A DNA stretch of 64,000 nt from Escherichia phage MN04: sequence record MT129654.1; one strand, 5' to 3'. Both the position numbers and the translations under genes were made by a program. Below are positions 6,902 to 39,434 of this stretch, in pieces (the stretch's first letter is position 1; each line of letters begins with the position of its first letter). Under the pieces are notes generated by a model that was given only the letters and a program-made list of their open reading frames with translations, did not search any database and had not been told where the DNA came from.

Positions 6902-7126
6902 ATGAAACTTTTTAAAGATATCGCAGTTGGTGAAAAATTTGTCTTAGGTAATGGTCAACAATTGATTCGCATTTCTCCTTTAATGGATAATAGTGAGCGG
7001 CCCATTCGTACTGAAAACTGTTTGGATTATCCTTTTTATCAAAAGCGTTTTGCTATTGAAAATAATACCGAGTGTTTCACGGTTGATGAACTGATGGAAT
7101 TATCAGAAGAAGTCGACTCTGAATAA
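6902..7126 (+). CDS. hypothetical protein (74 aa)
   Basis: ATG preceded by TGAGGAAAATATT cassette; track start 6869 is TTG. Confidence 0.3.
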   Translation: MKLFKDIAVGEKFVLGNGQQLIRISPLMDNSERPIRTENCLDYPFYQKRFAIENNTECFTVDELMELSEEVDSE

Positions 7127-7140
7127 TTGAGGAAAATATT

Positions 7141-7485
7141 ATGTCTAAAGTATTTTTTGGTAATTCTAAAGTTATGTTCTTTGAGCAACTCAGTCTTAAA
7201 GAGGCATTGGCAGCCTTCAATCAAGAACTGGTTACTGGGTTAGATTCAAAAACTATGGCAAGTGCGGATTTCGTTTTCGTTCAAGACCCGGATACAGGGT
7301 TTTATCGATTCATCAAATTCCGTATGAGCATGGACCCTGACTATCGTAGTGCTTACTATGTGAGTTACGAAAATGTTATCGAAGAATTACGTGATACCTA
7401 TGGACGTGCTTTGAACCCACTGAATAAGGTTTATAATGCGTCCTTTTATACGAGCGGATTTATTTTAGAACAGCTACAAAAATAG
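7141..7485 (+). CDS. hypothetical protein (114 aa)
   Basis: ATG preceded by TGAGGAAAATATT cassette. Confidence 0.4.
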   Translation: MSKVFFGNSKVMFFEQLSLKEALAAFNQELVTGLDSKTMASADFVFVQDPDTGFYRFIKFRMSMDPDYRSAYYVSYENVIEELRDTYGRALNPLNKVYNASFYTSGFILEQLQK

Positions 7486-7513
7486 TTTACAACCTCGAGA
7501 ATCATGTTATAAT
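7485..7513 (+). promoter_or_regulatory. early promoter of ndd (GTTTAC, 17 nt, TATAAT)
   Basis: Perfect consensus hexamers; CGAGAA/TTCTCG inverted repeat flanks the -10. Confidence 0.6.
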
Positions 7514-7562
7514 GGTTCTCGTTGACTGGATAACAAAACATTAATCTACTGAGGAAATTGAT

Positions 7563-8012
7563 ATGAATACTTATATGACTCGCGGTAACGTTCTGTCTGC
7601 TGGTGCTACTACTGTTGCTTATGTTAAGAATGGCGAATACCAAAATGGTAAGCCTTCTAAAGAAATCTCAGCCCAGCCAGGCTTCTACTTCTTTGTTAAA
7701 GGTGAAGCAGATTCTCGTGTCGTAGCCGCTCGCTTTTATGTCGGCAACCAACGTTCAGCTCAAGGTCTTGATGGTATTGTGGCTAACATTCGTAAGAAAC
7801 GTTCGCAATCAGCTCGTACTATGGCTGTGAATGGTGTAGTGTATGAAGTTCTTTATGTACCTGCTTCTAAAATGAAACCACTGACTACAGGTTTTGGTAA
7901 GGGTCAAATTGCAATGGCTTTCACTCGCAACCATAGTTCCGACCTTCAGACCCTGGAAGAAATGAACCGCATGTTGGCTGATAACTTTAAATTCGTTCTG
8001 CAGGCTTACTAA
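7563..8012 (+). CDS. ndd: nucleoid disruption protein Ndd
   Basis: 149 aa; C-terminus [18 protein letters not shown]...[20 protein letters not shown] matches recalled T4 Ndd; TATAAT early promoter upstream. Confidence 0.85.
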
Positions 8013-8089
8013 TGAGCAATTTCCATAACGAACATGTGATGCAGTTCTATCGTAACAATCTTAAAACTAAAGGCGTCTTCGGACGCTAA
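8012..8089 (+). CDS. stp: Stp peptide (activator of host anticodon nuclease in T4)
   Basis: 25-codon [28 protein letters not shown], near-identical to recalled T4 Stp; start overlaps ndd stop (TAATG). Confidence 0.7.
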
Positions 8090-8099
8090 TGAGGAAAAT

Positions 8100-8261
8100 A
8101 TGATTATCCTAGTTTTTATTGAACTTATTATGGCTATGGTTTGTTCAGTTTGCTTCTTTTTAGGTGTATGGACCCCTGGTCCGGTATTCTTAAGTTTTCT
8201 GTTTATTGGCTGGGTTCTTTCTACTTTTGTCGGTTTACTTAAGACGATTAAAAATGATTAA
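8100..8261 (+). CDS. small hydrophobic membrane protein (ac-like by position)
   Basis: 53 aa, ATG after GAGGAAAA SD; sits between stp and gene 52 as T4 ac does; identity not verified. Confidence 0.35.
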   Translation: MIILVFIELIMAMVCSVCFFLGVWTPGPVFLSFLFIGWVLSTFVGLLKTIKND

Positions 8262-8394
8262 GAAAATCTTGGGCTACTCGGTAGCCCTTGCTGCTTTATT
8301 GGTAGCACTGTATTATGGAGTAATATTCGGTCTTATCCAAGTTGTGCTTTTTATTTCCGATGTTATTATGGTTATTCATTCACTAGTATGGTAA
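8254..8394 (+). CDS. small hydrophobic membrane protein (46 aa)
   Basis: First ATG within track ORF 8206 (TTG start); predicted transmembrane stretch. Confidence 0.3.
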   Translation: MIKKILGYSVALAALLVALYYGVIFGLIQVVLFISDVIMVIHSLVW

Positions 8395-8398
8395 AATT

Positions 8399-9778
8399 AT
8401 GGCTGATGTAATTGATACCCTTTTTAAACAATCCTTAGATGTTTACGATGATGCTTTTACTCGTCGTGACTTAAAAAGCATTATCGACAATGAAGCGCTG
8501 GCTTATGCAATGTATACTGTCGAAAACCGCGCCATTCCAAATATGATTGATGGCTTTAAACCTGTACAACGTTTTGTAGTTGCTCGTTGTCTTGATATGG
8601 CTCGTGGTAATAAAGAAAAATTCCACAAACTAGCTTCTATTGCAGGTGGTGTAGCCGACCTTGGATATCACCACGGTGAAGGTTCTGCTCAAGAAGCAGG
8701 TGCTCTGATGGCTAACACATGGAACAACAACTTCCCACTGTTGGATGGCCAAGGCAACTTTGGTTCTCGATTAGTTCAAAAGGCTGCAGCCTCTCGTTAT
8801 ATTTTTGCACGAATTGGAACTAATTTCGCAAAGGTTTATAAGGATACAGAATATGCTCCGGTTCATGCGGATGTCGAACATAAGCCACCAGCTTTTTATC
8901 TGCCTATTATTCCTACTGTTCTTCTTAATGGTATTTCCGGTATTGCGACTGGTTATGCAACTAATATTCTTCCTCATAGTTTTGATTCTGTTAAGAAAGC
9001 TGTATTGCAGGTTCTTCAAGAAAAACGCGTAACCAAGCCTAAGGTGGCTTATCCGGAATTCCGTGGCGATGTGGTTGAGATTGAACCAGGTAGTTATGAA
9101 CTACGAGGCACGTATAAGTTCACATCTCGAACCCAAATGCATATCACAGAAATCCCGTACAAATACGACCGTGAAACGTACGTGGCCAAGGTACTGGACC
9201 CTTTAGAAGACAAAGGGTATATCACGTATGATGACGACTGTGACGAGAATGGTTTCGGCTTCAAGGTTAAGATTCGTAAAGAATATGAATTGCCTACTGA
9301 AGAAAATAAGAAGCATGAAAAAATCATGAAGGACTTCGGGTTAATCGAACGTCGTTCGCAAAACCTGACCGTCATTAATGAGAAAGGTAAACTTAAGGTT
9401 TACGAAGATGTAGTTGAACTGATTCGTGATTTCGTTGAGGTCCGTAAGACCTTTGTACAAAAACGTATTGATGGTAAAATCATCGAAACCGAAGAAGCTT
9501 TCAAACTGGCATTGGCTAAAGCTACATTCATTAAAGATGTTATTGATGGTGTGGTGGTTATCCAAGGTAAGACCCGTAAAGTTTTAACCGAAGAATTGGC
9601 CAGCAATAAAGTCTACGGTGAATACGCTGATAAACTCGTAGCAATGAATATTTTCCATATCACGTCCGATGAAGCTAAGAAACTGGCTTTGGAAGCCAAG
9701 GCTAAGAAAGAAGAGCACCAATACTGGAAAACCACTGATGTTGTAACTGAGTATGTTAAAGATTTGGAGGCTCTATGA
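8399..9778 (+). CDS. 52: DNA topoisomerase II medium subunit (GyrA-like)
   Basis: 459 aa; N-terminal RAIPNMIDGFKPVQRFV GyrA-type motif; T4 gene 52 synteny. Confidence 0.9.
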   Translation: MADVIDTLFKQSLDVYDDAFTRRDLKSIIDNEALAYAMYTVENRAIPNMIDGFKPVQRFVVARCLDMARGNKEKFHKLASIAGGVADLGYHHGEGSAQEAGALMANTWNNNFPLLDGQGNFGSRLVQKAAASRYIFARIGTNFAKVYKDTEYAPVHADVEHKPPAFYLPIIPTVLLNGISGIATGYATNILPHSFDSVKKAVLQVLQEKRVTKPKVAYPEFRGDVVEIEPGSYELRGTYKFTSRTQMHITEIPYKYDRETYVAKVLDPLEDKGYITYDDDCDENGFGFKVKIRKEYELPTEENKKHEKIMKDFGLIERRSQNLTVINEKGKLKVYEDVVELIRDFVEVRKTFVQKRIDGKIIETEEAFKLALAKATFIKDVIDGVVVIQGKTRKVLTEELASNKVYGEYADKLVAMNIFHITSDEAKKLALEAKAKKEEHQYWKTTDVVTEYVKDLEAL

Positions 9779-9879
9779 GCCTTGGAGTCGAGTTCTTGTT
9801 ACTCTGTATCTTTGCTGTTATCCTAGGCCTGGCGACAGGCTTAGCTATAGGTTTAATAGCAGCCCACTTTAAAAAGTAA
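9775..9879 (+). CDS. hypothetical small membrane peptide (34 aa)
   Basis: ATGA overlap with gene 52 stop; hydrophobic; followed by terminator. Confidence 0.25.
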   Translation: MSLGVEFLLLCIFAVILGLATGLAIGLIAAHFKK

Positions 9880-9900
9880 GGAACCTTCGGGTTCCTTTTT
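9880..9900 (+). terminator. rho-independent terminator after gene 52 operon
   Basis: GGAACC-TTCG-GGTTCC hairpin + TTTTT. Confidence 0.6.
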
Positions 9901-9919
9901 GGGTTTAGTGCAAAAAAGT

Positions 9920-9948
9920 GTTTACATCTGCTTTAAACATGATACTAT
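9920..9948 (+). promoter_or_regulatory. early promoter cassette, repeat copy 1
   Basis: GTTTAC, 17 nt, TACTAT; contains TGCTTTA (MotA-box-like). Confidence 0.5.
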
Positions 9949-9975
9949 AGACCTATCAAATAAATGAACTGAAAC
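9927..9975 (+). repeat. 49-nt direct repeat, copy 1
   Basis: TCTGCTTTAAACATGATACTATAGACCTATCAAATAAATGAACTGAAAC identical to 10271-10319. Confidence 0.8.
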
Positions 9976-9996
9976 AAACAACCCGGAGATACAAAA

Positions 9997-10224
9997 ATGA
10001 AATTTAAAATCGAAAACGAAATCGTTAAAGCTAAAAATGCTCTGACTGCTAACAAACTGGTTGTAGATGGTATTGAATATGATATCTGTGGAGTTCGTGA
10101 AGAAAAACCCGGTGTTCTGACTTTCTTCACAATGATTTTTAAATTTAAAGGTGACACAGAATTCAAACAGTTTGATTTTGCCCCTGAAGACGAAATCGAA
10201 GTTCGTAATCTGAACATTAAGTAA
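9997..10224 (+). CDS. hypothetical protein (75 aa) flanked by duplicated promoter cassettes
   Basis: ATG after GGAGAT SD; bracketed by the 49-nt repeat at 9927 and 10271. Confidence 0.4.
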   Translation: MKFKIENEIVKAKNALTANKLVVDGIEYDICGVREEKPGVLTFFTMIFKFKGDTEFKQFDFAPEDEIEVRNLNIK

Positions 10225-34837: not shown

Positions 34838-35251
34838 ATGAAAGAAATCGCAGATGAATTTAGCTTTATCAAGTACGTTACACTGGAGCTCCAAACAGAT
34901 GCTACTATAGCCCCTATCACGGTTCCAAACAAACAAAATGTCATATATGCTATAGCGGTTGATGATATACTAGTCTACATCGGGAAGACTAAAAATCTTC
35001 GTAAGCGCATCAACTACTACCGAACAGCTATTAATCGTAAGGACCAAACGTCGGATTCGACCAAGTCCATTCTGATTCATGAAGCATTAATGGCTGGTAA
35101 AAAGGTAGAGTTCTATGCTAGACAGTGCTTTAATCTGTCGATGACTAACGAACTTGGAACTATGTCAGTTGAGACCATGTCTCTTGAAGAGCCAATGTTC
35201 ATAAAGAAATTTAATCCACCTTGGAATACCCAACATAGGATAAAGCAATGA
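34838..35251 (+). CDS. denA: endonuclease II (GIY-YIG family)
   Basis: MKEIADEFSFIKY...VIYAIAVDDILVYIGKTKNLRKRINYYR near-identical to recalled T4 EndoII; in-frame ATG also at 34814 inside a hairpin. Confidence 0.85.
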   Translation: MKEIADEFSFIKYVTLELQTDATIAPITVPNKQNVIYAIAVDDILVYIGKTKNLRKRINYYRTAINRKDQTSDSTKSILIHEALMAGKKVEFYARQCFNLSMTNELGTMSVETMSLEEPMFIKKFNPPWNTQHRIKQ

Positions 35252-36396
35252 TTGAATTATATGATAACTTGATGACTTTGGTTAAAAACTCGACTAAATC
35301 TAAGTTCTTCTTTAAAGACTTCCAGAGTGCTCTAGGAGTCAACTATCGCATCTTTAGTTATAACTATGCATCGTACAGCGATTGGTTGGAAGACGGCGCG
35401 CTAGAGTGCCGAGGCATTATGTTTGAAATGGACGAGAACGGTCCTGTACGTATCGCTGCTCGTCCTATGCAAAAGTTCTTTAATCTCGATGAAAATCCAT
35501 TGACTATTGGTTTGGATTTATCACAAGAAAATATCGACCTCGTAATGGCTAAGGAAGATGGTTCCTTGATTTCTACTTTCATGGACAGACAATATCTTTC
35601 TGTTAAATCTAAAGGCTCTATCCATTCGTCGATGGTACATGATTCTTTACGTTTCCTTCGACTCCCTGAAAACGAGGCCTTCGCTGCTCGTTTAGAAGAA
35701 ATTACTAAAGCAGGCTATACATGTAACCTCGAGTATGTTTCGCCTACTAACCGTATTGTGCTGGCTTACCAAGAAACAAACCTTATCTTACTGAACGTTC
35801 GTAATAACGAAACGGGTGAGTATATCCCTTACGCTGAACTGTTTAAAGATGGCGCTCTGCGTAAGCATTTGGTTAAAAGCTATGAACTCGCCGAAGGTGA
35901 TTTTGTTGACAATATCCGTAAACAAGAGGGTATTGAAGGCTTTATCTTTGTACTTAAAGATGGCACGTTCTTTAAACTCAAAACCGCTTGGTATAGCGCA
36001 CTGCATCATACCAAAGATTCCATTAACAATAACGAACGTTTATTTGAAGTTGTAGTGGCTGGTGGAACCGATGACCTCCGAGGTTTGTTCAGCACTGATT
36101 CATTTGCTATCGAGAAAATCAATGCATTTGAACGTACCCATTTAGACTACTTAGAACAGTCCTTGGCTTTGTTAGAAGCAGCATATTCCCAGCTCAAAGG
36201 CCGCGACCGTAAAGACTACGCTGTTACTGGTCAGTTAATCCTCAAAGACTTCCCAGGGCTGTTCTCTATTCTTATGCAGGCGTACGTAGACGGTATTAAT
36301 TATGATACGGTCGTGGACCAGATTAACTCTGTGTTCTTGAAAAATCATAAGGCCCAAATCCCTGAAAAATATTTGAAAGAAATTGTAATAGAGTAG
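35248..36396 (+). CDS. rnlA: RNA ligase 1 (gp63)
   Basis: 382 aa; YRIFSYNYASYSDWLEDGALECRGIMFEMDENGPVRIAARPMQKFFNL matches T4 Rnl1. Confidence 0.9.
   Translation: MIELYDNLMTLVKNSTKSKFFFKDFQSALGVNYRIFSYNYASYSDWLEDGALECRGIMFEMDENGPVRIAARPMQKFFNLDENPLTIGLDLSQENIDLVMAKEDGSLISTFMDRQYLSVKSKGSIHSSMVHDSLRFLRLPENEAFAARLEEITKAGYTCNLEYVSPTNRIVLAYQETNLILLNVRNNETGEYIPYAELFKDGALRKHLVKSYELAEGDFVDNIRKQEGIEGFIFVLKDGTFFKLKTAWYSALHHTKDSINNNERLFEVVVAGGTDDLRGLFSTDSFAIEKINAFERTHLDYLEQSLALLEAAYSQLKGRDRKDYAVTGQLILKDFPGLFSILMQAYVDGINYDTVVDQINSVFLKNHKAQIPEKYLKEIVIE

Positions 36397-38233: not shown

Positions 38234-39433
<1,200 letters not shown>

Positions 39434-39434
<1 letters not shown>

Follow-up and report, generated by a model that had tools for sequence, protein, structure and literature searches.

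The literature on phage T4 describes Stp as a peptide that targets the type IC restriction enzyme EcoprrI, and also EcoR124I, but not type IA enzymes, and that blocks restriction with modification unaffected (PMC3014915, PMC1484252, PMC12409349, PMC12707154). In prr+ hosts, the inhibition of EcoprrI by Stp unmasks PrrC, an anticodon nuclease specific for tRNA-Lys (PMC3014915, PMC1484252, PMC12409349). For its activation, PrrC requires GTP hydrolysis and an EcoprrI DNA substrate that is unmodified, with dTTP as co-activator; it cleaves the tRNA 5′ of the wobble base (PMC3014915, PMC1484252, PMC12409349, PMC12707154). The cleaved tRNA-Lys is then healed and sealed by Pnkp and Rnl1 (PMC3014915, PMC1484252, PMC12409349). 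How EcoprrI is inhibited is still unknown according to a 2025 review (PMC12707154).

In Stp, the first 18 residues hardly vary among T4 relatives, whereas the C-terminus is polymorphic (PMC3014915, citing Penner et al. 1995). In the same source, loss-of-function suppressor mutations cluster at residues 4–14, and removal of the eight C-terminal codons lowers both activities only moderately (PMC3014915).

The stretch of 64,000 nucleotides analyzed here (the window) carries at 8012..8089, on the + strand, a 25-codon frame that alignment and family profiles identify as a true T4-type stp, an already known gene at its usual site. The best explanation of the whole, to which we give a probability of about 0.93, is that this frame is the stp of a Dhakavirus and would act as T4 Stp does.

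Genomic setting of the stp frame

When positions 7400–8700 are compared by megablast with 50,697 phage records, the best matches have 95%–97% identity and belong to Dhakavirus (NC-G, dhabil, JS10, JS98, IME08) of the Tevenvirinae; none of these records is identical to the segment. By nucleotide identity, the window phage belongs to Dhakavirus (JS10/JS98 group), as a close but distinct relative of recorded phages. The window runs opposite to the standard T4 map, and the order ndd-stp-ac-52.1-52 is the same in the window, T4, and JS10. The region contains, in order:

7486..7513, + strand: promoter-like site of the sigma-70/T4-early type (TTTACA, 16-nt spacer, TG, TATAAT), 11 of 12 consensus matches
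7563..8012, + strand: ndd, nucleoid disruption protein, 149 aa (PF06591, Phage_T4_Ndd, E = 1.2e-68)
8002..8004, + strand: weak Shine–Dalgarno-like AGG, 7 nt upstream of the stp ATG, from sequence inspection
8012..8089, + strand: stp, ATG start, 25 codons and TAA stop, from the ORF listing, the T4 alignment, family profiles, and codon analysis
8100..8261, + strand: ac, acridine resistance membrane protein, 53 aa (phrog_9347, E = 8e-26; position as T4 ac)
8254..8394, + strand: gene 52.1, 46-aa membrane protein (Pfam DUF7396, E = 6e-22), in agreement with the JS10 annotation
8399..9778, + strand: gene 52, topoisomerase II medium subunit (PF00521, E = 1.8e-74)
9878..9897, + strand: terminator-like hairpin AAGGAACC-TTCG-GGTTCCTT followed by TTT, 3′ of gene 52, a consensus match only

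The site at 7486..7513, upstream of ndd, is the likely start of a putative ndd-stp-ac-52.1-52 transcript. The ndd product is 62% identical to T4 Ndd. A GAGG at 8091–8094 forms the ribosome-binding site of ac, the counterpart of which in phage NC-G is annotated "acridine resistance."

A 25-codon frame overlapping the ndd stop had been reported in the initial annotation and is present as described: the two genes overlap by one base, the final A of the ndd TAA, with which the stp ATG begins (TAATG). A second stop, TGA (8090–8092), follows directly upon the stp TAA, and the ORF listing has no minus-strand frame of at least 20 aa across 8012–8089. The arrangement of AGG and TAATG before stp is found also in T4 and JS10. 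The weak AGG and the overlap suggest translational coupling of stp with ndd.

Alignment with T4 Stp and codon pattern

The window peptide is identical to T4 Stp at 25 out of 25 aligned residues. The T4 peptide given in the initial annotation was thus right in sequence, without a mismatch on alignment, but not in length, since authentic T4 Stp has 26 residues (RefSeq NC_000866, 165505-165585, annotated as a 26-amino-acid activator of host PrrC): codon 26 is CAG (Gln) in T4 and TAA in the window. The family profiles agree with the alignment. Pfam PF08133 (anticodon nuclease activator) matches with 72.1 bits (cutoff 25, E = 2e-20) over residues 1–25, the profile having 26 positions, and phrog_6763 matches with E = 1.6e-20; phrog_28068, with function unassigned, matches residues 2–19. 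The loss of Gln26 should be tolerated and is unlikely to matter, because the loss of eight C-terminal codons lowers the activities of T4 Stp only moderately.

In a tblastn search of the phage collection, Stp matches 820 records, and in 438 the identity is at least 99%. With respect to T4, stp forms an island of 95% nucleotide identity between less similar neighbors (ndd 56%–72%, ac 47%).

Codon substitutions (Nei–Gojobori) were compared in eight T4-like alleles (window, JS10, T4, VR25, UPEC01, Yersinia P8, T2, and NIC06P2) and five siphovirus-type alleles (Kagunavirus PDP21P8, HelliStehle_Bas95, Tunavirus Lg3, Tlsvirus Stevie, and Deseoctovirus S192). For codons 2–18, pN/pS is 0.16 in the T4-like alleles and 0.15 in all 13; for codons 19–25, the values are 0.54 and 0.73. 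A ratio near 0.15 at codons 2–18 across the 13 alleles means that the frame is read as protein: stp evolves as a protein-coding frame and its peptide is under purifying selection. The pattern, constrained at 2–18 and looser at 19–25, agrees with the published contrast between the N- and C-terminal parts of Stp.

Short frames are abundant (the ORF listing has 42 with 20 aa or more in 3 kb) and the Shine–Dalgarno element of stp is weak, so that an untranslated chance ORF, alike to Stp by coincidence, has to be weighed. Such a frame would not be expected to share 25 of 25 residues with T4 Stp and to reach E = 2e-20 in Pfam, to lie in conserved synteny, to change mostly synonymously between alleles (pN/pS 0.15), or to recur in as many as 820 phage records. 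Taken together, the match to T4, the family score, the conserved gene order, and the codon pattern exclude a chance ORF, which we regard as exceedingly improbable.

Hairpin at the 3′ end of stp

The last codons of stp can fold in the RNA:

8072..8087, + strand: RNA hairpin GGCGUC-UUCG-GACGCU with a C(UUCG)G tetraloop, comprising stp codons 21–25 (GVFGR) and the first base of the stop, from folding

The folding energy is −9.3 kcal/mol (z = −2.8). The T4 counterpart (−11.5 kcal/mol) is the same except for the terminal pair, which is G-C in T4 and G-U in the window. The ribosome-binding site of ac comes directly after the hairpin. Read on the minus strand, with a T-rich run behind it, the hairpin has a terminator-like score, and in some GenBank records (vB_EcoM_G2540) a "terminator" is annotated at this spot.

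The conserved block could be mainly an RNA element, the hairpin stabilizing the message or controlling the translation of ac and the peptide being secondary. The hairpin is indeed stable in both phages, its stem is kept in VR25/Gaprivervirus-type alleles through wobble-compatible changes, and the spacer between stp and the start codon of ac shows 100% identity with T4. However, it spans only the last five codons, whereas the strongest conservation is in codons 1–18, which are synonymously variable. In addition, the T2-type, Kagunavirus, Bas95, and Drexlerviridae alleles all keep the peptide without the hairpin. A scan of 7000–10000 against Rfam, with E up to 1, yields no match, and T4 genetics maps stp function to missense changes of the peptide (PMC3014915). 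Confined to the 3′ end and missing from alleles that keep the peptide, the hairpin is rejected as the cause of the conservation in place of the peptide, and a primary RNA role is very unlikely. With the peptide as the conserved product, the hairpin may be an accessory feature that does not replace it.

Stp in other phages

Within Dhakavirus, two Stp alleles are found. The T4-type allele of 25 residues occurs in JS10, IME341 (L018), and the window, and the Gaprivervirus-type allele of 26 residues (..QWHRHNLKLTGVFGRP) in JS98 (L048) and IME281 (L042). The presence of a Gaprivervirus-type allele in some Dhakavirus genomes indicates that alleles have been exchanged between genera. The sequence upstream of stp differs in JS98 and IME341, and in UPEC01 other DNA is present between ndd and stp. 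The mixed alleles, the differing upstream sequence, and the insert between ndd and stp together point to the stp locus as a recombination mosaic.

The Stp family extends beyond the T4-like phages, to Kagunavirus (92% identity to the window peptide) and HelliStehle_Bas95 (84%). Peptides of the family are present also in Tunavirus Lg3, Tlsvirus Stevie, Deseoctovirus S192, and many IMG/VR contigs of 43–50 kb, a good ribosome-binding site preceding each. In the extracted loci, the Stp frames lie at 2501-2578 (L009 and L010), 2501-2581 (L011 and L012), and 2501-2584 (L013), with about 25 IMG/VR loci among L015–L052. In a 4-kb IMG/VR contig (L033, 226-450), the Stp frame has no stop and continues as a 74-aa ORF, perhaps because it is fused to the ORF that follows or because of a sequencing error.

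The siphovirus peptides share the motif MSN[FW]HNEH[VI]MQ[FW][YH]R and have divergent C-termini. Ribosome-binding sites of the GGAG/GAGG type precede all siphovirus stp alleles. Between the Kagunavirus allele and that of the window there are 10 synonymous codon differences and only two amino-acid differences. Siphovirus-type Stp is mostly unannotated or "hypothetical"; only Stevie has a note naming Stp. With the window Pnkp and Rnl1 as tblastn queries against the flanks of siphovirus stp, no linked repair module was found, the only match being the already annotated phosphatase domain of Stevie.

A tblastn search with Stp of 72,556 plasmids gives a single match, at 96% (CP088689.1, 40360-40434). 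This record, of 44,086 bp and non-mobilizable, comes from an E. coli blood isolate, resembles a Kagunavirus genome in size, and probably represents a phage placed among the plasmids. Stp as a plasmid anti-restriction gene in that collection was considered and rejected, given one match in 72,556 plasmids, itself probably phage.

tRNA repair genes and proposed action of Stp

The initial annotation had placed pseT and rnlA in the same window, and both are there:

35248..36396, + strand: rnlA (gene 63), RNA ligase 1, 382 aa (PF09511, RNA_lig_T4_1, and PF20819, T4_Rnl1_C)
38529..39434, + strand: pseT, polynucleotide 5′-kinase/3′-phosphatase, 301 aa (PF13671, AAA_33 kinase, and PF25109, HAD_PNKP phosphatase)

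As in T4, alc sits between the two genes. The pseT ORF opens with ATGATG (38526, 38529), and the alignment with T4 Pnkp, to which the product is 89% identical, favors 38529, giving 301 aa. All 11 Pnkp residues checked are kept (K15, S16, D35, R38, R126, D165, D167, R176, R213, D254, and D278), the essential positions in published T4 Pnkp mutagenesis. The rnlA product is 49% identical to T4 Rnl1 over its full length. The motif I lysine is kept, K102 being the counterpart of the adenylylated Lys99 of T4, as are 11 other residues (R54, K75, F77, D101, G102, K119, E159, E227, G228, K240, and K242) that are essential in published mutagenesis of the T4 enzyme. From their sequences, with every catalytic residue checked in place, pseT and rnlA are apparently intact.

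Within 4 kb, the divergence from T4 is thus very uneven, Pnkp at 89% identity versus Rnl1 at 49%. Together with Stp (100% over 25 residues) and Ndd (62%), these values suggest that some genes have been exchanged with Tequatrovirus in a mosaic fashion.

The proposed course of events follows T4. The gene would be transcribed early, most likely on the ndd-stp-ac-52.1-52 message, and its translation, coupled to the end of ndd, would yield a 25-residue peptide with its activity in the first 18 residues. By analogy, Stp would bind the type IC restriction–modification complex of the host (EcoprrI, EcoR124I) and block DNA restriction. In the rare hosts with PrrC docked on a type IC complex, binding of Stp would unmask PrrC, which would cut tRNA-Lys 5′ of the wobble base, and the break would be mended by Pnkp and Rnl1. 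We infer transcription, translation, and every biochemical step in the window phage, including the inhibition of type IC restriction and the activation of latent PrrC by its Stp, from sequence and from the T4 precedent. The role assigned to Stp in the initial annotation (interference with EcoprrI that triggers PrrC, countered by Pnkp and Rnl1) agrees with the literature (PMC3014915, PMC1484252, PMC12409349). Its "complete attack-and-repair gene set" holds for the trigger and the repair enzymes, which the phage carries, but not for PrrC and EcoprrI, which are host genes and not in the window. ARAGORN finds no tRNA genes over the 64-kb window, and hence there is no phage tRNA-Lys decoy in the window.

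The window also has alc, denA, and denB, a set that suggests modified phage DNA. Type I enzymes would not be expected to act on such DNA, so that anti-restriction alone does not explain the benefit of Stp here. The gene could then be a true stp homolog with its selected role elsewhere than in type IC anti-restriction or PrrC triggering, namely on a second host target. To the modified DNA, which type I enzymes should not cut, one can add the strong purifying selection on the N-terminal 18 residues, which T4-like phages have in common with three unrelated groups of siphoviruses (Kagunavirus, Drexlerviridae, and the Deseoctovirus type, where these residues are just as fixed), and an inhibition of EcoprrI that is still without a known mechanism in the 2025 review (PMC12707154). 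Yet a second Stp target is not reported, largely the same residues are needed to activate PrrC and to inhibit EcoprrI (PMC3014915), and the siphoviruses, with DNA presumably unmodified, would gain from plain anti-restriction. We consider a second target unlikely and keep the T4-like action as the preferred reading. Were a second target real, the window stp would be another copy of a widely used peptide effector with its main function undiscovered.

Annotation of stp

In a spread tblastn sample of 38 annotated T4-like records, the Stp match is covered by a CDS other than ndd in at most eight, and a Stp-related name is given in only four. The gene thus mostly goes unannotated. We suspect that, at 78–81 nt, it is shorter than the smallest gene that common gene callers accept. 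The gene had been called unannotated in the initial annotation, which is correct for the track used there but not in general: an identical 25-aa gene is annotated stp in RefSeq JS10. The 25-residue form without Gln26 is therefore already on record, and the window stp is a known gene at its known site, with a function established in T4.

The Dhakavirus of the window carries the classical trio Stp, Pnkp, and Rnl1. Small known effector genes are hidden by the size cutoff in annotation tracks, and beyond such annotation hygiene the stp finding has little import.

Comparison with known systems

A close counterpart is JS10 stp (YP_002922605, Dhakavirus, RefSeq NC_012741), annotated "stp, activator of host PrrC lysyl-tRNA endonuclease." It encodes the same 25-aa peptide in the same local context as in the window, the surrounding 1.3 kb is 96.7% identical, and the two genes differ by one synonymous change at codon 2 (AGC versus AGT).

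T4 Stp (NP_049878; PF08133, Nuclease_act) has residues 1–25 in common with the window peptide. In both phages, stp sits between ndd and ac and overlaps ndd at TAATG, the C(UUCG)G hairpin is present, and ac has GAGG as its ribosome-binding site. The window gene differs from that of T4 by the missing Gln26 and by 4 nt out of 78. Stp of the Gaprivervirus/JS98 type belongs to the same family and locus and has its first 11 residues as in the window peptide, but it differs by five substitutions in residues 12–20 and by a 26th residue.

At a greater distance stand T7 Ocr with PARIS and Ronin, where a phage restriction inhibitor likewise triggers a second-line, translation-blocking defense (PMC12409349). 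AriB of PARIS also cuts tRNA-Lys, as PrrC does (PMC12409349). The inhibitors themselves are unrelated proteins: Ocr is a DNA mimic of 116 aa, whereas Stp is a peptide of 25–26 aa specific for type IC enzymes.
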